Part shown: positions 878 to 38,363 of the stretch, piece by piece
Layout: the number at the start of each line of letters is the position of its first letter
Numbering within the stretch: position 1 is the first letter of the stretch
Assembly: GCA_026396285.1 (NCBI GenBank)
Contig: JAPLXB010000022.1
Location: 9,506-73,505 of the forward strand
DNA: 64,000 nt
Origin: Candidatus Micrarchaeota archaeon
GTDB taxonomy: Archaea > Micrarchaeota > Micrarchaeia > Norongarragalinales > JAPLXB01
Direction: 5' to 3'
Made by a program: the position numbers and the translations under genes
Notes under the pieces: generated by a model
The model's input: only the letters and a program-made list of their open reading frames with translations
Databases searched by the model: none
What the model was told of the DNA's origin: nothing

Positions 878-1290
878 TACAACTGCATTGATTAAAAAGT
901 TGGGAGCGAGGCCGTACCCCGCCTTCTGTTCCGGAGCCTGAAAGGCCTACACCGGTTGCGCGAAGCGCAACCCAGGCTTATCCGCGGCATTGGACTGAGC
1001 GGGCATTTGCCCTTGCACTTAGCCAGGCACGTTTCATCCCGCGCAGCTTCAACGGTCGGCGCCAACCCGGCGATGCGAAGCACCGCCAAGCAGGTTTTCG
1101 TCATTCCTCTGCTGTTTGGGTCTCGTTTCTGCTCCCGGCTCCTGCATGACACAGGGGGAATTGCTTCCCTTGAAGCGCTACCCCGGCAACGCGGAGCGTT
1201 GTCCTGGCAGCGCCAGTGGGCGGAAGTTCCTCAGCGCCGCGGCCTTTGAAGCCGCGGTACCGACAGCCGCGCACCTCGCTCCCGTAGACA

Positions 1291-2603: not shown

Positions 2604-3122
2604 GAAATCACCGAAAAAACAGTGGATTCGCTTGTTTAAATGATTTCCGCGGCCGGCGGCTGCACGCGCAATGCTTGCGCTAACGGGTTTTGAAAAAATG
2701 GCTGCGCCGGGTTTTTTTCACGCAGCATTGGTCGTTGGTCCCTCGGGGTAGTGTCCACAAGCCAATGGCAAGTATCGTTACTGCATCAAGAAAATTGCCA
2801 TTGGATTGTGAAGAATGGCCTTTAGTGGCGGTTGGCTCAATGCTCGCTTTCGCTCGCATCTTCCACCTCCGCTCTATCAAACCCATCTGCTATGGGCGGC
2901 CTATGCTGTCTCGTTTTGGGGCCGGCTTCGTCCTTAGTTAGACCCCGACGGGATGCAGTATCAGTAGCTACCTCGGTCCTCATTTAAGGAAATCAGACTG
3001 GGACAGTTTCTTCACGACCGCTCCCGCCGAGTATGCCTTCAGGACTTATCCGATGGCGCGTGGCTACGCGGCATGCGTTGACACAACCGCATTACTAGAG
3101 GCGCCGACTCCCCGTTCCTCTC

Positions 3123-3267
3123 TTGAGCCTGGGCACTGTCCGCGAAACTGTGCAGTCCAGGATAGACTGCGGGAATTTTCACGCAACTGTTGACGACAAT
3201 TCACGGACTTTCGTCTCGTGCCGCCATCTGTTGCGCTTACCGAAAAATATGCGGGCCTTGCCCAGTG
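3123..3267 (-). other. Putative intron/insertion (about 145 nt) splitting the 23S sarcin-ricin loop
   Basis: In rRNA sense the gene reads GAGTAC[145 nt]GAGAGGAACGG. Removing the insert restores the universal AGUACGAGAGGAAC. Confidence 0.5.
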
Positions 3268-3449
3268 TACTCAGGGAACCTTACCCTCAGACAGCAAAGC
3301 ACTTCTAGGAGATGCCACCGAACTGTCTCGCGACGTTCTGAACCCAACTAACGTGCGTTTTTAACGGATGAACAACCCGACCCTTGGCGGCTCCTGCACC
3401 ACCAGGATAACGCGAGCCGATAGCGATGTACCAAACCGCGTGGTCGATT

Positions 3450-3644
3450 AGCCCTTTTCAAGGCAATTTTCCTCACAGTCGTGGTACGAGTTGGTTTCGT
3501 GACCATCGTTCGAATCAGTCGATCGCCGACTGAACGTAGAAATTTTTTGGGACTCCTGCGCCCGAATCGGCGCGACTTGAAACGAACAGCCTCGCACCAC
3601 GAGAAAATCACCATACCCTTCCATGAAAACACGGAAGAGGAAAA
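3450..3644 (-). other. Putative intron/insertion (about 195 nt) in 23S domain V
   Basis: In rRNA sense the gene reads CGAGAGTTCAT[195 nt]AATCGACCACGCGGTTTGGTACATCG. The conserved sequence is ...GAGUUCAUAUCGACGG..GUUUGGCACCUCG. The insert has no ORF. Confidence 0.5.
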
Positions 3645-6600
3645 ATGAACTCTCGCACGCGACGAGCCTGTTACCCCCGGGGTAGCTTGTCTGACAGAAC
3701 GGGCCCCCAGTAAAAGGGACACCGTTGTTCGCTAAGCCCGACTTTCGTCTCTGCGGACCATTTTGTTAGGACCACAGTCAATCCGGCATTTGTCTTTGAC
3801 CCTCTACAGCGCATTTCTGACGCGCTTGAGCCGAATATTAGGCGCCTTTGTTTTTTTATCGAAGGCGTACCGCCCCAGCCAAAACGCCCATCAGCAGCTG
3901 TCCATTTCTGTTAGAAACACAGTCAAAGAATAGCAGTGTCACACTTTCGCCTATCGCCGCCCCGGAAGGCGGCGCATAACGGCTCCTGCTTACGCTTTGA
4001 TCCCCCAACCGTATTCCAACTGCAAACTGCGTTTAAGCTCCACGGGGTCTTCGTTTCCCCCTAGAAGTCCTCGGCATGTTCACCGAGTAGTAGGTTCACC
4101 AGGTCCAAAGCTGGGACAGTGGGACGCTCGTTACGCCATTCATGCAAGCCGCCAATTAAGCGGCGAGGTATTACGCTACCTTAAGAGAGTCAGAGTTACT
4201 CCCGCTCTTTAACGGTCCTTCGCCCCCTTGAAAGGAGGTTTAAGATCCCGCCAGTGAGCAGGCGTCGGCACCCGTGCACAACGTTTCCATCTTGCGGGTA
4301 CCTGTGTTTTTGCTAAACAGTCGACGTCCCCTTGTTTACAGCCCTTTTTCGCGCTCGGGCGCTATCAACCAAATCATAAGCTTAAAAGCGGGCGCTTTCG
4401 CGTCCGCGGGTTAGCATTTCATGGGTTGTTCATTTCTTCACCGCGTGAAAAAGAGTCACTGCGACCTACCAATCCCCTTCGATGTGATCCGCGAACCCGA
4501 TTGCGTGGAACGCAATCAAGCCGCGTATAATCTCTGGAGAGAGGTAGGCATCCCTTCTTCCGAAGGTATGGGACTAACTTGCCGAATTCCCTAGCTTTGG
4601 TTCTCCTGCCACGCCTTGGCTTTTTCTGCCAGGGGCACCTTTCAGTAAACGTTTTCTTTTGGTGAAGCTTTTCTTTTCCAAAAGAAAAGGCTCAGTACTG
4701 GTTCTTGGTACGGTCTAATGGGATCCATTCCCTCACTCTTTTCAGGGGCTCGTGGAATCGGCCCAACCCTTTCGGGCTATTCCCTGCTTGGGCGCATGCT
4801 CCTCGTTACGAGACTTCTGCGCTCTGTTCAGGTTAACCACCCTCTCGGGTGGTGGGCTTGTCCGCAAGCGTCAAATGAAGGACTTGCGTTGCCGCGCGTA
4901 CCCACTAGGCACACGAATGTTAACGTGTTTCCCTTTCGGCTTCACGGTTACGTTTAGCCTTAGGACCGGCTTACTCTTGGTCGACTAGCGTTGCCAAGAA
5001 ACCCTTGCCCTTCCGGCGTCCAGGAAACGAGTAACAGGACGACGCTCCGCGTCGTCGTGTTAGTTCTCGCCTGGAATTGATGCTACTAGCACCAGGATCT
5101 TCGTCGCGACCCGGTCCACACGACCTCACGGCCGTGCTTCTACCCGGGCCCCGCGCCCTCCTAATCGGTCACGAGATTTCCTCTCGTGCGCTGGAGTATC
5201 GGTGATGCGCTTAGTCCCGATAGTTTACAGCGCCGCAGTCCTTGACGGGTCCGCTGTTACGCGTTGTTTAAAGGATGGCTGCTTCTGAGCCTACCTCCCC
5301 GCTGTCTGAGAACCATGACGCCTTGTCTTAACACTTAGCGCATGCTTTGGGACCTTAGCTCCAGTAGGGGTCGTTCCCCTCTCGGCGTACGCGCTTATCT
5401 CGTACAGCCCAACTCCCAGCGTCTTAAACGCTGACGGCTTCGGAGTTTGACAGGAAAGTGAGGATTTTACTCCCCGTTCTTCCCAGTCGGTTGCTCTACC
5501 CGTCAGCTGTCTCGGCTGAGGCTGTCCTGAGAGACACTTCGGAGGGAACCTGCTAATGCCGGCCTCGAATGAACTTTCATCCCTAGGCACGAGTCACCCC
5601 AGCGGCTGTCCAACCTTTTTGGTGAAGCTTTTTGCGTACAAAAAGGTTCTTAGACCAGCACGGGTTGCGGGCCTCCGCCAGCCTTACGGCCGGTTTCGCC
5701 CTGCTCGAGTCTAGATCGGTCCGGCTTCAGGTCTCAAACGAGTGACTCAAGGCGCTTTCGCACCCTCCCCCTCGCGCAACAAGTGCGTTGCGGGGACTCG
5801 CTTTCGCTTTGCATTGTGTGCTCGCCACTCGCATGAACTCCCTGGCCCTTGCTTCGAGAAGTATGATGCAACACTGGTTACTCCTTTCGGAGGTCATTCC
5901 TTTTGCGCCGCATCTTCTTGTAACCACCCAGTTTCAGATTCTTTGCACTGCCCTTTCGGGCTGCTTTTCAGTTTTCCATCACTGTACTGGCTGCGCTATC
6001 GGTCTCGGATTATATTTAGCGTTTGAAGTTAATGCTCCGGCTTTCCCACGCCCAATCCGGGGCGCGGTACTCTGGATCCCACCACACCCGGCGGTCGTTC
6101 GCTTACACGGCTTTCACGTTCTATGGCAAAGCTTTCCAGCTTTCTTCAGCTCCGGCTGCCGGCGTTAAAAGGTGGTCCCTGAACCCCACATCTGAACCGC
6201 CTTGCGGCGGGTCATTCGGTTTGCGCTATTCCGCTTTCGGTCGCCCTACTTGCGGAATCCTGGTTAGTTTCTTTTCCTCTCCCTACTGAGATATTTCAAT
6301 TCGGAAGGTCTTCTCTCCTCTCGGAGTTATTCGGGAACCCGCGGTTCAAAGCCTCCGTGCGGCTACCCGCGGCTTTTCGCAGCTTGGCGCGCCCTTCGTC
6401 GCTATCCGAGCCCAACCATCCACTGAGTGGCATAAACTAGTAGCACTACTCCTCGGGAACCAACGACCTATGCTGCTTCATGAAAACGAAAACGCGTGAC
6501 CGTAGTCAGCGTTTCCTCAGCGCTTGGTTCGACGACGCCCCGGGAAGGGGACTTACTCGCGAACTGCCATTCCTTTTCCAACGATTTTTACTCGCCGAAA

Positions 6601-6673: not shown

Positions 6674-6776
6674 TGGACTCGGTGGGATTTTCATCCCCGC
6701 AGAAATGCACGCAGGGTTTTTGAACCCACGACCTCCTGCTTGCAAAGCAGGCGCGCTGCCACTGCGCTACGAGCCC
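6674..6776 (-). tRNA. tRNA-Ala(UGC) with a roughly 31-nt intron in the T-loop (16S-23S spacer tRNA)
   Basis: The reverse complement reads GGGCTCGTAGCGCAGTGGCAGCGCGCCTGCTTTGCAAGCAGGAGGTCGTGGGTTCAA[AAACCCTGCGTGCATTTCTGCGGGGATGA]AAATCCCACCGAGTCCA. The acceptor stem has the G3:U70 Ala identity pair. The anticodon loop CUUUGCAAG gives UGC. The T-stem GUGGG/CCCAC encloses 38 nt instead of 7. CCA is not encoded. Confidence 0.8.
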
Positions 6777-6973
6777 AAGCCGTGCTTGGTTGCGGAAGTG
6801 ACTCCGCAACAGTCGCTATCCCGGCGAACGCGAACCTGCACCGGCGATGGCTTTAGCCATCGCCAAGGTTGTCCGGCGTCCGCCAAGGCGTTTTTCCAGG
6901 CTCCAAGAATTGCATTGACCAAAGGAAATTGACTTTCCTCAGATCTCTCCAAATTAGTTCTTCCAACCAATTG

Positions 6974-8583
<1,610 letters not shown>

Positions 8584-31471: not shown

Positions 31472-31594
31472 GGGCCCGTAGCTCAGCTTGGCTAGACCAA
31501 CTGCTTGGGCGATGCTTCGCATCGCCGGGGTAGGCGGGGCTACAGCAGCTGGCTTTTAACCAGAAGGTCGTGGGTTCAAATCCCGCCGGGCCCG
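31472..31594 (+). tRNA. tRNA-Lys(UUU) with a roughly 48-nt non-canonical intron in the D-arm
   Basis: Exon 1 is GGGCCCGUAGCUCAGCUUGGCUAGA (31472-31496). The intron is 31497-31544. Exon 2 is GCAGCUGGCUUUUAACCAGAAGGUCGUGGGUUCAAAUCCCGCCGGGCCCG. Spliced this gives a 75-nt cloverleaf with a 7-bp acceptor stem GGGCCCG/CGGGCCC, discriminator G, a D-stem GCUC/GAGC restored only after intron removal, and anticodon loop CUUUUAA. Confidence 0.65.
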
Positions 31595-33662: not shown

Positions 33663-35243
33663 ATGGCGAAAGTCCACTGGGCCGACCAGGCTGCGGAAAA
33701 ACTGCTGAAGAACGAGAGCAACATCGTCGCCAGCGGCACGTCCATCTCGGGCAAGCCCCACATCGGCAACGCCAACGACGTGATACGCGCGGGCATCATC
33801 GTCGAGGCAACCAAGCAGGCGGGCGGCCGGGCGGACCTCGTGTGGGTGTCGGACAACATGGACCCCATGCGCCGCGTGCCCGAAGGCCTGCCGAAAGAGT
33901 TCGAGGAATACATGGGGATGCCGTATTCGGACATACCCGACTTGGAAGGGTGCCACGCCAGTTTCGCGGAACACTATGAAAAAATCCTCTTGGACGAAGT
34001 GGGTGCGGCTGGCGCGTTCCCAATGGTTTTCAATGGCAGGGACATGTACCGCTCCGGAATGTACGACAACGCGATAAGGACCGCGATTGAGAAAAGAGCG
34101 GAAATAAAGGCGATCCTCGACCGTTTCAGGGAACACCCGCTGCCGGCAGACTGGTTCCCGTTCAACCCGATTTGCAGCAACTGCGGGCGCGTCGCCACGC
34201 CCAAAGTCACCGGCTACGCGGACGGCAAAATAAGCTATGCCTGCGCAGACGCGGTGGTTGGAAAGGGGGAGAACCCGGTCAAGGGCTGCGGCAACGAAGG
34301 CACCGCCGACTTCCACGAGGGGAAACTGGTGTGGCGCGTGGAGTGGCCCGCGCGGTGGAAGTTCCTTGAAGTCACGTGCGAGCCGTTCGGGAAAGAGCAC
34401 GCCGCCGCAGGCGGGTCATGGGACACCGGCAAACTGATTTCGGAACAAATTTACGGTTATCCTGCGCCGCTTCCGATAATTTACGAGCACTTCCAGGTCG
34501 GGGGGCAGAAAATGAGCAAGAGCATCGGGAACGTGGTGACGGTCGGCGACTGGCTGGAGTGCGCGCCGCCCGAAACCTTGAGGTATTACCTTTTCGCAGG
34601 GGACATCAACGTCGCCAAGGACATGGACATAACGACGGTAATGCCGCACGTGATGGAGGAATACCAGCGCGTGGAAAGGATTTACTTCGGCCGCGCCCGC
34701 GAAGGAGAGGCGCCGAAGGAAGAGGAGGCTGCCGGCAAGCTGAAGCGCATTTACGAACTCAGCCAGTTGAAGTGTGTTGCGCCGAAGGAGATGCCGGCGC
34801 AGGTTCCGTACGGGTTCGCGGCGCTCCTCGCGCAGGTGGCGCCGTCGCGGGAGAAGAAAATCGAGGTCTTAAAACGCACCGGCCACTTTGACGAAAAACT
34901 GGCGGACGCGATAATGGATTTCGTGGAAAGGGCGGGTTTCTGGGCGCGGAAATACAAGGCCGAGGGGTACGTGGTTGAATTCGCTGGCGCAGCCGAGGCT
35001 AAGAAGGCGCTGGGTGCGGAAAAAGCCGCTACGGTAAAGGCATTCGCGGCCGCCTATGAGAAAAAGGATTTGCGGGACGCGGTGAAGGCGTGCGCCGCGG
35101 CAACCGGCAAGTCGGACAAGGAGGTTTTCGCGGCGGTTTACCTCGCGCTGTTTGCAAAGGAAAAGGGGCCGCGCCTCGCTTCGCTCGAGGACGCGGTGGG
35201 GAAGGAAAAGCTGCTGAAAATACTGAAAGAGGCGGTTTCGTGA
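33663..35243 (+). CDS. lysK: Lysyl-tRNA synthetase, class I (archaeal type)
   Basis: 526 aa. HIGN (HIGH-class motif) near the N-terminus and GGQKMSKSIGN (KMSKS). The size and layout are typical of class I LysRS. Confidence 0.85.
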   Translation: MAKVHWADQAAEKLLKNESNIVASGTSISGKPHIGNANDVIRAGIIVEATKQAGGRADLVWVSDNMDPMRRVPEGLPKEFEEYMGMPYSDIPDLEGCHASFAEHYEKILLDEVGAAGAFPMVFNGRDMYRSGMYDNAIRTAIEKRAEIKAILDRFREHPLPADWFPFNPICSNCGRVATPKVTGYADGKISYACADAVVGKGENPVKGCGNEGTADFHEGKLVWRVEWPARWKFLEVTCEPFGKEHAAAGGSWDTGKLISEQIYGYPAPLPIIYEHFQVGGQKMSKSIGNVVTVGDWLECAPPETLRYYLFAGDINVAKDMDITTVMPHVMEEYQRVERIYFGRAREGEAPKEEEAAGKLKRIYELSQLKCVAPKEMPAQVPYGFAALLAQVAPSREKKIEVLKRTGHFDEKLADAIMDFVERAGFWARKYKAEGYVVEFAGAAEAKKALGAEKAATVKAFAAAYEKKDLRDAVKACAAATGKSDKEVFAAVYLALFAKEKGPRLASLEDAVGKEKLLKILKEAVS

Positions 35244-35752: not shown

Positions 35753-36904
35753 TCACGGCTGCGTCCATTCTATTTCGTAGTACTCGTACTTGCTGCCCGG
35801 AAGCTCCACTCTCTTCACCCGGTAGTGAGTGATGGAAGTTTCGCGGTCGCAGATGGAGAGTATCAGTTCAAGGCCGACTTCCTTCGCGCGGCGCAGCGCC
35901 TGTGCCAGTTCCTGCCCCCCGATTTCCTCCTCTTCGCTTAGGGCCAGCATCACGAACTTCGGCTTGTCTTCCCTCGGGTTTTCTATCGCCCCGTGCTTCC
36001 GGTGGTACAACAGGAAGTCTAGTTCGGCGGCAGTCTCCTTTTTTTCGCCGGGAATCGCGAGGATGAACGTTTTTTTCACGCCGTGCGCCACGCGGATGGC
36101 GCGTGCCCATTCGCTGATTAGCATCTTGCTGTCGCGGGGGAACACGTGGATGACGTGCTTGGAGTGCATCCACTCCTCGTTCTCGAGCGTCGGTGACGCG
36201 CCCGGGAAGTAGAGGCGGAAGTGGGTGCCGAACTTGAAACCGGTTTTGAGCACGAAGCCGCGGAGGCGCCAGTCCTCGTAAACGTCGTACAGCGCGTTGA
36301 AGTCCTGCCGCCTTTGCGTCGCTTCCTTCACGAGCCGGGCTTCCTTGATGTTCAACACGTATCCGCCGTGGCGCATGAGGAAAAGCGTCTCGTACGCGTC
36401 GAGTTTGTTGAATTTCCCGTGCTTCCGCGCCTTGTACGTCCCGTACTGGCCGAACCAGTCGCGCTCATAAAGCGCCAGGCCTTTTTCCTCGTCGTCAATG
36501 ACGCTCATCAAGTCGTCGTACAAAAACAGGCCTCTGGCTTTCACGCGCGGGCAGTCAAAGTGCTTGGAAGGGTATTTCACCACCGGGCTGCGGCCGTAGT
36601 TGCCTTCGGCCTCGTCCATGGGCCTTGCCACGAGCCCGCGGTCGCGCCAGTCGCGGTAGCAGAAATAGCGCGCCATGAACTTTTTTCCCTGGAGTTTTGA
36701 CGCTAGGCGGTTGAAGGAAACCTGCTTGCCGTTGTGCGTGCAGGAGGCGTTCCTCACGTCCATCAAGTACAATGCTTCCACCGGCATTAGCTCCAGGACG
36801 TTTTTCCCGGTTTTTTTCCCGAAAAAGCCGCGCTCAAGCGCCTGCTCGGAAGTTATTTCCTTTGCCAGCACGCGTTCTCCGTCAAATTCAATAGTGACTG
36901 CCAT
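35753..36904 (-). CDS. endA: tRNA-splicing endonuclease EndA, long single-chain multi-unit form (about 383 aa)
   Basis: The true start MAVTIEFDG is at 36904. The 647-aa ORF-track version has a low-complexity spurious N-extension. Unit 1 is degenerate (YFCYRDWRDRGLVA, no catalytic triad). Unit 2 is catalytic: ALYDVYEDWRLRGFVLKTGFKFGTHFRLY...HSKHVIHVF...AHGVKK, carrying the Tyr/His/Lys triad. A further roughly 90-aa C-terminal segment resembles the last strand-helix-strand of an EndA C-domain (FVMLAL...AQALRRAKEVGLELILSI). Confidence 0.75.
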   Translation of the reverse strand: MAVTIEFDGERVLAKEITSEQALERGFFGKKTGKNVLELMPVEALYLMDVRNASCTHNGKQVSFNRLASKLQGKKFMARYFCYRDWRDRGLVARPMDEAEGNYGRSPVVKYPSKHFDCPRVKARGLFLYDDLMSVIDDEEKGLALYERDWFGQYGTYKARKHGKFNKLDAYETLFLMRHGGYVLNIKEARLVKEATQRRQDFNALYDVYEDWRLRGFVLKTGFKFGTHFRLYFPGASPTLENEEWMHSKHVIHVFPRDSKMLISEWARAIRVAHGVKKTFILAIPGEKKETAAELDFLLYHRKHGAIENPREDKPKFVMLALSEEEEIGGQELAQALRRAKEVGLELILSICDRETSITHYRVKRVELPGSKYEYYEIEWTQP

Positions 36905-37085
36905 TGGGCGTCTCCTCCGCGGGCACCAAAACCCCTTGATTGTCTGCTGCCCGGCGATTGAGTCGGCGAGCCTCTGCGGCTCTTTTAATATTCGCGCTGC
37001 CTTGATTAAAAAAGCGACTGCTTTGCAGCGGAGCCGGCGGGCCTGCCCGTCCTCCGGTCTGCCGCGTGCGGCGGGGGTAGCGGGA

Positions 37086-38363
37086 ATGGGTTTGCTTGAC
37101 GGCCTGGCGGGTTTCTGGAAAAAGCCCGGACCCAAGCCGGCTGCCGGGCGCAGGGAAATGCGCCTCGGCGAACTCGAGTCCTTCCTGAAAACGGAAAGGG
37201 CGGGAAAGCTCGCGCCTTTTGCGGAAAAATCGCGGGACGCGTGCGGAAAAATACTGGACGAACTCGCCGACGCCGCGCGGGCCGCGGAATCCCTCAGGGA
37301 CGCGGAGCCGACCGGCAAATGGAGCCGCATCGGCGAACAAATGAGGGAAAACTTCATCACACGCATAGTCCCGACCCTTGGAATCGCGCGCCACGGCGAA
37401 GGCTTTGAAGCCGCCGCCGAGTTCCACTCCAAGGCGTTCGCGGCAATCTCGGCGTGCACGAAAATATTGTCGGACAACCGGTACCTCCTGCACTTCTTTC
37501 CCAAATCCATGGGCGGTTTCGCGAAGAGGATGAACGCGGCGTCGGCGCTCGTTGAGGAACTCGGCAAAATCGTGCAAGGGGGCCGGCAGGCGGCCGCGGG
37601 GTTTGACGCGGCGGTTGGCGCGCTGAGGGAACGCGAGAAAACGCTCTCGGAGAAGGCTGTTGCCGAGAAGGAGATGGGTGAGTTGGAGGCGTTCAAAACC
37701 GGTTTGAAAAAGAGGATTGCGGAAGAGACTGCGGCCGCGTTGCCCGGGGGAAGGGGGCTTGGCGGCGCGGTTGCCGGAGGAGGCGCTTACGGGGCTGTTG
37801 AAAAAATCGCCGGCATTGAAAAGCGCGTTGGGGCGCTGAAGGCGGAGTTGGCGGTGATGCTGAACCCCCTGGATCGGCTGTTTAGGAAGTTGGAAAAAAT
37901 TTCCCTTGAGAAGCGCGTGGCTGAAAAAGCCGCTTTTTACGCGGCCGGCCCCGCCGACGCAGTGGTTGAAGGCGGAGAGGAAGGGTTGGAGGAATTGAAG
38001 CGCCTTGCAGAAGAAGTCGGCAAGGAACTCGCCGCCGGCCGCTTGGAGACGGACGGGGAGAAGAGGAAGAAAGCAGTGGCTGCTCTGGAACGGATTGACT
38101 TTGGAAAAGTTTCCGCGGCAGTGAACGAACTGGGTTCGCTTGAGAAGGAAAAGGCCGCGGCCGCAGCAGTGCTTGAAAGGGAAAAGGCCGCAGAGCGCGA
38201 GAGGCGGGACTTGGAGGAGGAGCTTGCGGCGGTGGAAATGAAGAAGGTGGCGTTGGAGGAAAAAATACGCGGCGCGGCGAAAAAACTCGCCGAATCCGTG
38301 GCGGGCATTGAAAAAAGCGCTTCCGCGGCCGCTGGCGTTGAAATAAAAATAGCCGCTGAATAA
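37086..38363 (+). CDS. Ala/Glu/Lys-rich coiled-coil protein (cytoplasmic), first gene of the filament supercluster
   Basis: 425 aa from the ATG at 37086. The longer ORF-track version overlaps endA on the other strand. Heptad-like EELAAxxAALE repeats run throughout. No TM. It ends 25 nt before the first class III signal-peptide gene. Confidence 0.4.
   Translation: MGLLDGLAGFWKKPGPKPAAGRREMRLGELESFLKTERAGKLAPFAEKSRDACGKILDELADAARAAESLRDAEPTGKWSRIGEQMRENFITRIVPTLGIARHGEGFEAAAEFHSKAFAAISACTKILSDNRYLLHFFPKSMGGFAKRMNAASALVEELGKIVQGGRQAAAGFDAAVGALREREKTLSEKAVAEKEMGELEAFKTGLKKRIAEETAAALPGGRGLGGAVAGGGAYGAVEKIAGIEKRVGALKAELAVMLNPLDRLFRKLEKISLEKRVAEKAAFYAAGPADAVVEGGEEGLEELKRLAEEVGKELAAGRLETDGEKRKKAVAALERIDFGKVSAAVNELGSLEKEKAAAAAVLEREKAAERERRDLEEELAAVEMKKVALEEKIRGAAKKLAESVAGIEKSASAAAGVEIKIAAE

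Follow-up and report, generated by a model that had tools for sequence, protein, structure and literature searches.

Epsilon-2 represents the fourth type of splicing endonuclease in archaea, and its co-evolution with disrupted tRNA genes has been published (PMC3239211). Its founding member is the three-unit EndA of Candidatus Micrarchaeum acidiphilum ARMAN-2 (PDB 4FZ2; PMC3239211, PMC3488258), for which crystal structures with and without RNA, the catalytic residues and a specificity loop are available (PMC3488258, PMC12397907), including the complex with bulge-helix-bulge (BHB) RNA (PDB 9W2K; PMC12397907). In the sequence-based picture of 2011, the family consists of alpha-p, alpha and beta units (PMC3239211). 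According to the crystal structure of 2012, unit 1 is an N-terminal half only, which forms one beta-sheet with the C-terminal part, betaC; alphaN and betaC make up one structural unit, split by insertion of the catalytic unit, and the protomer amounts to two unit-equivalents (PMC3488258). Here, an endA gene of a Candidatus Micrarchaeota archaeon (assembly GCA_026396285.1) was analyzed together with the interrupted tRNA and rRNA genes in its vicinity. The window, i.e., the whole stretch of DNA analyzed, comprises 64,000 nucleotides of contig JAPLXB010000022.1 (positions 9,506 to 73,505 of the forward strand), and all coordinates below refer to it. The EndA coding sequence occupies 35753..36904 on the minus strand (383 aa plus stop) and encodes an epsilon-type three-unit RNA-splicing endonuclease. 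Observations on enzyme and introns covered homology, predicted fold, residue conservation, intron positions and BHB geometry.

A phmmer search against the PDB returned the ARMAN-2 enzyme as top hit (4fz2_A/9w2k, E=9e-131), with residues 8-383 of EndA aligned to residues 10-387 of the 395-residue chain. Identity between the two proteins was 53.5% over 374 aligned residues. The remaining EndA types aligned to the central catalytic unit only, with E-values of ~1e-20 or worse. An AlphaFold2 model was computed from an input of 39 homologues and reached a mean pLDDT (predicted local distance difference test) of 89.1 and a pTM (predicted template modeling score) of 0.86. When this model was compared using Foldseek, the template modeling (TM) scores to 4fz2_A were 0.94/0.93 with a root mean square deviation of 2.3 A over 389 columns, and the TM score to 9w2k_B was 0.93. 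The best match outside the epsilon type was the alpha'2 enzyme 1rlv with a TM score of 0.52, and the subunits of alpha4 and (alpha-beta)2 enzymes spanned just one unit of the model. An identical 383-aa protein is deposited in GenBank (MCX6767404.1, 'MAG: tRNA-intron lyase [Candidatus Micrarchaeota archaeon]'). In total, 1529 database clusters matched EndA at E<=1e-5; the best 120 of these had lengths of 341-456 aa, a query coverage of 89-100% and identities of 59-100%, and all named entries among these 120 were Micrarchaeota, Micrarchaeia or Norongarragalinales. Since entries with this exact protein are assigned to Micrarchaeota by name in the databases, an argument raised in an earlier note on this DNA, by which the 16S-tRNAAla-23S arrangement speaks against a crenarchaeal system, is superfluous.

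EndA is thus very probably an orthologue of the epsilon-2 type (EndA/VSEN) of ARMAN-2. The earlier note had described a single-chain, three-unit EndA of ~383 aa at 35753-36904; the open reading frame (ORF) does contain 383 codons plus stop, and the full-length homology and the TM score of 0.94 to 4FZ2 bear this description out. Its link between three-unit enzymes of ultrasmall archaea and the cleavage of relaxed BHB motifs agrees with the experimental papers (PMC3239211, PMC3488258, PMC12397907). Window and ARMAN-2 enzymes are of the same length class (383 vs 387 aa), have the same order of parts (alphaN-linker-alpha-linker-betaC) and come from the same phylum, and both are accompanied in the genome by tRNA genes whose introns lie at non-canonical positions. 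The N-terminus of the window protein is 2-3 residues shorter. Its start was set to the ATG at 36904, where length and N-terminus (MAV.FE) match homologues of 383-388 aa; the stop-to-stop frame extends upstream to ~37786.

For the layout of the chain, unit borders were carried over by alignment from ARMAN-2 EndA (alphaN 2-97, linker 1 98-125, alpha 126-288, linker 2 289-300, betaC 301-387). All parts lie on the minus strand. AlphaN (aa 1-94, 36623..36904) consists of the N-terminal subdomain, to which the first helix-strand of a catalytic-type domain (YFCYRDWRDRG) is added, and lacks the triad; Pfam tRNA_int_endo_N matches aa 6-67. It is followed by linker 1 (aa 95-122, 36539..36622) and by the alpha unit (aa 123-284, 36053..36538), which is the only complete, catalytic unit and overlaps the match to Pfam tRNA_int_endo (catalytic; aa 203-288, E=6.8e-30). 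After linker 2 (aa 285-296, 36017..36052), the chain ends with betaC (aa 297-383, 35756..36016), the C-terminal half of a structural beta-like unit carrying D353/E355 of the L10 loop and W380. This part is modeled as strand-strand-helix-strand-strand, and weak matches of the last ~87 aa were obtained to the beta-subunit model PRK09539 of NCBIfam (E=0.009) and to the beta-subunit 2zyz_A of the PDB (E=0.18).

Comparison of the units with each other using hhalign gave weak signals for alphaN against the N-terminal subdomain of alpha and for betaC against its C-terminal subdomain (P~0.003). A clearer signal (P=1.6e-5) linked aa 76-93 (YFCYRDWRDRGLVARP) to the helix-strand with which the catalytic subdomain opens (YDVYEDWRLRGFVLKTG). 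BetaC provides the remainder of the subdomain begun by these residues, and by this reading hhalign agrees with the split-unit structure. The AlphaFold2 model likewise has the fold of an epsilon protomer, with alphaN and betaC in one sheet and alpha apart. The earlier note had listed a degenerate unit, a catalytic unit and a partial C-terminal unit. The catalytic and the partial C-terminal unit stand, but no whole degenerate unit precedes them: judged from the structure of 2012 and from hhalign, unit 1 is only a half, alphaN. The C-terminal ~90 aa, for which a likeness to part of an EndA unit had been proposed, are indeed a partial unit, namely the ~87 aa of betaC. Thus, alignment and structure prediction find neither an unrelated C-terminal domain nor a missing unit 1.

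The functional residues established for ARMAN-2 EndA were mapped by alignment, and their conservation was determined in 39 homologues of 61-87% identity. The catalytic triad Y236/H251/K282, known from mutagenesis (PMC3488258), corresponds to Tyr232 (36209..36211), His247 (36164..36166) and Lys278 (36071..36073), all encoded on the minus strand within the alpha unit and nowhere else in the chain. The motifs FRLY, HSKHV and HGVKK, from which the triad had been assigned to unit 2 alone, are present and coincide exactly with these residues. His247 and Lys278 are invariant. The ARMAN-type specific loop (ASL) is found at aa 155-165 (GTYKARKHGKF, 36410..36442, minus strand), with Y157/K158 in place of Y160/K161 of ARMAN-2; G155, Y157 and K158 are invariant. 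In ARMAN-2, the latter two residues lie next to the active site and are determinants of broad substrate specificity, and the loop lets the enzyme cleave relaxed BHB motifs at non-canonical positions (PMC3488258, PMC12397907). S252 corresponds to S248, the base clamp R275/W384 to the invariant R271/W380, and the dimer contacts K228/R234 and D357/E359 to K224/R230 and D353/E355, which are all invariant as well. Every mapped functional residue is invariant in the homologues except Y232, which is conserved in >=90%. Triad, Tyr/Lys of the ASL, Arg/Trp base clamp and L10/pocket residues are therefore identical in both enzymes, whereas the ASL as a whole is more basic in the window protein (GTYKARKH) than in ARMAN-2 (GTYKVSEH).

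Dimerization, catalysis, broad specificity and actual splicing are inferred by us from the characterized homologue, and the mechanism would be as follows. AlphaN and betaC would pack into one non-catalytic structural unit. Two chains would dimerize such that the acidic L10 loop of betaC (D353, E355) enters the basic pocket (K224, R230) of the partner's alpha unit; the homodimer would thereby have the four units usual for these endonucleases, and its two active sites would lie about one BHB apart. At each of them, one 3-nt bulge would be cut between nucleotides 2 and 3, which is the register of the 9W2K complex and was used throughout this analysis. Y232 would act as general base, H247 as general acid and K278 as transition-state stabilizer in an RNase-A-like cleavage leaving a 2',3'-cyclic phosphate (PMC3488258, PMC12397907). 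R271 and W380 from the other protomer would clamp the first bulged base. Y157/K158 of the ASL would anchor the backbone at the bulge, whereby a perfect 3-4-3 motif and the canonical position 37/38 would be less required. Within the window, pre-tRNA-Ala with its T-loop intron, pre-tRNA-Lys with its D-arm intron and the 16S and 23S precursors with at least 10 mini-introns are the likely substrates. Motifs of both kinds are on offer, strict (23S 5063..5026, with helices h=6, H=4, h'=5) and relaxed (tRNA-Lys, and tRNA-Ala without the inner helix).

Both tRNA genes of the window are interrupted. The gene for tRNA-Ala(UGC) with the G3:U70 pair (6674..6776, minus strand) contains a 31-nt intron (6688..6718) in the T-loop at position 59/60. 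The junctions lie in two 3-nt bulges, and the 4-bp helix between them is stacked on the 5-bp T stem (hBH, h=5, H=4). Removal of the intron gives a 72-nt tRNA-Ala(UGC) with a UUCAAAU T-loop, the G3:U70 identity pair and a clean cloverleaf. ARAGORN and Rfam call an uninterrupted 73-nt tRNA-Ala at 6704..6776 on the minus strand (39 bits); this candidate was rejected, as its T and acceptor stems are mispaired and its 3' end is wrong. The true 3' part (AUCCCAC CGAGUCC A) is found 31 nt further downstream. The gene for tRNA-Lys(UUU) (31472..31594, plus strand) contains a 48-nt intron (31496..31543) in the D-arm at position 22/23, the removal of which gives a clean 75-nt cloverleaf. ARAGORN misses this gene, and Rfam matches it from the anticodon arm onward (31536..31594) with 29.1 bits at a threshold of 29. 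In the minimum-free-energy fold of the precursor, the 4-bp central helix and the 3-nt 5' bulge are formed, flanked by short helices only.

The 16S rRNA (6972..8582, minus strand) and 23S rRNA (2803..6451, minus strand) measure 1611 nt against 1478 model positions and 3649 nt against 2987 model positions of Rfam, respectively. According to the Rfam alignments, the 16S gene has three insertions and the 23S gene eight. A strict 3-4-3 BHB in exactly the register which restores the consensus was found for 10 of these 11 (two in 16S, eight in 23S). Those in 16S are 8070..8099 (30 nt, 530 loop) and 7429..7476 (48 nt). The eight in 23S, likewise on the minus strand, are 5606..5649 (44 nt), 5026..5063 (38 nt), 4641..4694 (54 nt), 4472..4536 (65 nt, with a less certain junction), 4336..4456 (121 nt), 3449..3644 (196 nt, peptidyl-transferase region), 3123..3266 (144 nt, sarcin-ricin loop) and 2938..3032 (95 nt). 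At the 530 loop, joining of the flanks restores GUGCCAGCCGCC|GCGGUAAUAC; the sarcin-ricin loop regains GAGUAC|GAGAGGAAC and the peptidyl-transferase region GAGUUCAU|AUCGAC, and GAAGGCAU|CUAAGG is restored at a further junction. For tRNA-Ala, all 4 of 4 central pairs and the 3-nt bulges are present at the junctions which give the clean cloverleaf. For random junctions of equal length in the operon, P(H=4) is 0.020; for 11 successes in 12, with threefold slippage allowed, P is ~5e-13. The earlier note had reported non-canonical introns in tRNA-Ala, tRNA-Lys, 16S and 23S, and all of them are present.

BHB introns are known from the 16S rRNA of Thermoproteales (PMC4496867), BHB and group I introns from rRNA of DPANN archaea and Micrarchaeota (PMC6125680), and 16S insertions are on record for ARMAN-2 and ARM-1 (PMC8784108). 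The introns here resemble the known archaeal rRNA BHB introns in their conserved sites and in the 3-4-3 BHB formed between exon and intron. They differ in that at least 10 occur in one operon, most of them with 30-65 nt, and in that several have common sequence cores. Read from their lengths, the putative introns encode no ORF >=60 aa.

The intron in the 530 loop was followed across archaea by scanning 185,579 species-representative genomes for the pattern GTGCCAGCCGCC-N(20-50)-GCGGTAATAC, which resulted in 51 loci (L001-L051), 46 archaeal and five bacterial. The archaeal loci belong mostly to Micrarchaeota including Anstonellaceae, about nine to Aenigmatarchaeota, and one each to Nanoarchaeota and Woesearchaeota. 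Together with that of the window, they provide 44 distinct inserts (43 plus the window's own) of 26-45 nt which start with A and end with CGGU or CGGC followed by A(A/C/U). All 44 keep the 4-bp helix H with exon GCCG, and positions 3-5 of the inner helix each show at least 4 standard pair types, i.e., covariation. None of the archaeal insert features was found in the five bacterial pattern matches. By these alignments, the 530-loop insertion is a conserved, putatively spliced BHB intron of DPANN lineages, and its conservation speaks for real splicing. It may be an ancient, site-fixed feature common to Micrarchaeota and Aenigmatarchaeota. For the remaining intron sites, a regex survey of the 51 loci was of little use, given low coverage and highly variable flanks.

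Further short insertions were seen in 16S genes of Micrarchaeia, Aenigmatarchaeota and Woesearchaeota. In loci L014, L033 and L045, additional ones lie ~150-200 nt downstream of the 530 loop. The helix 35 site, interrupted at 7429..7476 in the window, is interrupted too in the DPANN loci L018, L033 and L040, with ends CGGUA, CGGCA and CGAUA. Mini-introns seem to be widespread in DPANN rRNA.

Some observations weigh against an epsilon-2 enzyme which splices these RNAs. K241/K244 in the second loop of ARMAN-2 EndA are replaced by S237/L240; these lysines are dispensable in ARMAN-2 (PMC3488258). The BHB of tRNA-Lys is weak or relaxed, with two G-U pairs in H, h=1 and h'=2. At the third 16S insertion (7933..7975, 41-43 nt), no BHB restoring the consensus was found with bulges of 2-5 nt. 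A de novo scan for strict BHB motifs (h+h'>=8) gave 196 hits on the plus and 369 on the minus strand of the window, which are background; as an intron finder, the whole-window scan was rejected as uninformative without an independent junction. Because the background is abundant, the evidence lies in the coincidence of BHB motifs with independently defined rRNA and tRNA junctions, not in the motif alone. Finally, the search for further EndA genes spans 64 kb of the genome only, which bears on an alternative by which EndA needs a partner, an alpha or beta subunit from another gene elsewhere in the genome, as in (alpha-beta)2-like systems, or is a decayed paralogue beside an active EndA. Systems of the (alpha-beta)2 type (Aeropyrum pernix 3P1Z/3AJV, Pyrobaculum 2ZYZ, N. 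equitans 3IEY; Crenarchaeota and Nanoarchaeum) likewise accompany intron-rich RNA genes: they have the broad specificity which would be expected of EndA here, and they occur alongside rRNA introns and many non-canonical, multiple or split tRNA introns. The base-clamp Trp and the beta-like C-terminal half of EndA resemble this type as well. However, (alpha-beta)2 enzymes are encoded by two genes, with an alpha subunit of ~180 aa carrying the Crenarchaea-specific loop (CSL), whereas one ORF here encodes both the alpha and the beta-like parts. The specificity of (alpha-beta)2 enzymes comes from the CSL (Lys44), a loop without homology to the ASL that arose convergently (PMC3488258). A beta-like half is already part of the single chain of EndA and its L10 loop is intact, as is the pocket of the catalytic unit, and the 53.5% identical ARMAN-2 enzyme is active alone as a homodimer (PMC3239211, PMC3488258). 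A second gene for an EndA or beta subunit was not found in the 64-kb window when 919 six-frame segments of >=40 aa were searched using hmmsearch and a profile of the 39 homologues (best other match E=3.1), and the strong purifying conservation across homologues speaks against decay. A missing partner or a decayed copy is therefore very improbable. The other alternative for the protein, a two-unit alpha'2 (euryarchaeal-type) homodimer with an unrelated C-terminal extension and narrow specificity for strict BHB motifs, draws on a length nearer to alpha'2 than to alpha4 enzymes, on partial matches to alpha'2-type NCBIfam models (PRK09300 variants) and on matches to the Archaeoglobus fulgidus (AFU) enzymes 1r0v and 2gjw at E~1e-20. 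Enzymes of this type (AFU 1R0V/2GJW; Thermoplasma 2OHC) are, as would be the EndA here, single-chain homodimers with one catalytic unit per chain, the same triad chemistry and the same L10-pocket principle of dimerization. Yet their chain has no ASL, requires a strict BHB and is a tandem of two complete units, the second being catalytic, whereas in the EndA here the structural unit is split and its halves flank the catalytic unit: betaC follows the catalytic unit, and unit 1 is without most of the C-terminal subdomain. The alpha'2 equivalogs of NCBIfam (PRK09300) remain far under their cut-offs (44-134 bits vs 292-518, e.g. 134 vs 501), and TM scores to alpha'2 structures are ~0.5 vs 0.94 to 4FZ2. 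The C-terminal 87 aa match ARMAN-2 betaC residue by residue, including D353/E355/W380, and the ASL insertion, which turns AFU EndA broad-specific, is present and invariant in the family. By PDB search, Foldseek and the ARMAN-2 alignment, an alpha'2 enzyme appears effectively refuted, with a probability close to nil.

A further explanation concerns the RNAs and leaves the epsilon-2 assignment of EndA as it is: the rRNA insertions could be retained expansion segments or self-splicing group I introns, in which case their co-occurrence with EndA is coincidental. Group I introns do occur in rRNA genes of Micrarchaeota (PMC6125680), the 16S insertion 7933..7975 without a BHB sits in a hairpin tip, and the 23S insertion 4472..4536 sits in a hairpin loop, where its junction is not fixed by the consensus. 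Most insertions, however, have 30-144 nt and are below the size of group I introns, and no match to Intron_gpI or any other Rfam family was obtained in the rRNA operon at E<=1 using cmscan. Several insertions break universally conserved sites (16S 530 loop, sarcin-ricin loop, peptidyl-transferase region), which makes their retention implausible. Strict BHB motifs in the consensus-restoring register at 10 of 11 insertions and, for the 530-loop intron, BHB-preserving covariation in 44 distinct sequences are also at odds with this explanation, which is improbable. The 10 rRNA insertions with a BHB are best read as putative BHB introns and candidate substrates of the epsilon-2 EndA.

Some of the introns are related in sequence. 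The 23S introns 5606..5649 and 4641..4694 (minus strand) have a common core, AAAGCTTCACCAAAA(G/A), with 15 of 16 nt identical, and the 16S intron 7429..7476 (minus strand) contains a diverged version, AAAGCCGTTCACTGAAAG. All three have a long U-rich/A-rich inner helix. The comparison suggests one family at non-homologous rRNA sites and a possible transposition. Another element is found outside the rRNA introns. An exact 17-mer, TGCTTCGCATCGCCGGG, is common to the D-arm intron of tRNA-Lys (31513..31529, plus strand) and to the P12 region of the RNase P RNA (1066..1082, minus strand), and the likeness extends over ~40 nt around it (CTGCTTGG(G)CG(A/G)TGCTTCGCATCGCCGGG(G)T(A/T)GGCG). A diverged copy is the 41-nt insertion in a 16S hairpin loop (7933..7975, minus strand); this loop has 25-28 nt and is uninterrupted in most of 40+ related DPANN 16S genes. 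Either a mobile hairpin module or a protein-binding element common to these RNAs may explain the likeness between tRNA-Lys, RNase P RNA and 16S. The archaeal RNase P RNA candidate itself (903..1282, minus strand) scores 64.7 bits at an Rfam gathering score of 84 and was found at the E-value threshold only. It has several lineage-specific insertions, namely an enlarged P3 loop, a P12 region and ~49 nt before the 3' ACAGAAGG element. A BHB intron in this RNA was considered and rejected, as the 3-4-3 motif (GACG/CGUU) coincides, by reading of the alignment, with the region of the Rfam consensus where a C/D-like kink-turn lies at the base of P12.

Copying between genes has been proposed for tRNA introns in Thermoproteales. 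For the window, an active spread of BHB mini-introns among stable-RNA genes, tolerable through a broad-specificity epsilon-2 enzyme, with the 530-loop intron being ancient and site-fixed instead, is conceivable, although we regard it as unlikely. If true, introns or hairpin modules would copy between unrelated RNA genes.

Downstream of EndA, a small membrane-protein-like ORF and then a class I lysyl-tRNA synthetase gene follow in convergent orientation. The synthetase gene (PF01921, E=2e-112; 33663..35243, plus strand) is located ~2 kb from the intron-bearing tRNA-Lys gene (31472..31594, plus strand); this clustering of tRNA-related genes near EndA is probably coincidental. Upstream, on the opposite strand, an ORF of 562 aa without a Pfam match (36675..38363, plus strand) overlaps the 5' end of EndA by ~230 nt. 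Its true start is probably located further downstream, and its product, judged from the amino acid sequence, is alanine/glutamate-rich and possibly a coiled-coil protein.

The finding on EndA is correct but already known in its substance (PMC3239211, PMC3488258, PMC12397907). Rather, the more interesting by-product, which we state with modest confidence, would be the density, small size and sequence kinship of the rRNA introns. In rRNA of Micrarchaeota, both BHB and group I introns as well as insertions are on record (PMC6125680, PMC8784108); for dense, small, sequence-related rRNA mini-introns in Micrarchaeota, only general reports and no description were found in the searchable open-access literature. 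The protein, annotated as 'tRNA-intron lyase', can be renamed more precisely 'epsilon-2 three-unit EndA'. In this genome, tRNA and rRNA genes are mis-annotated by standard callers, as tRNA-Ala is called without its intron and tRNA-Lys is barely detected, and the rRNA lengths are inflated through the insertions by about 130 (16S) and 660 nt (23S). The 530-loop intron lies inside the target of primer 515F and could bias amplicon surveys against these lineages. The intron catalogue could thus matter for 16S-based surveys and for studying the spread of BHB introns.

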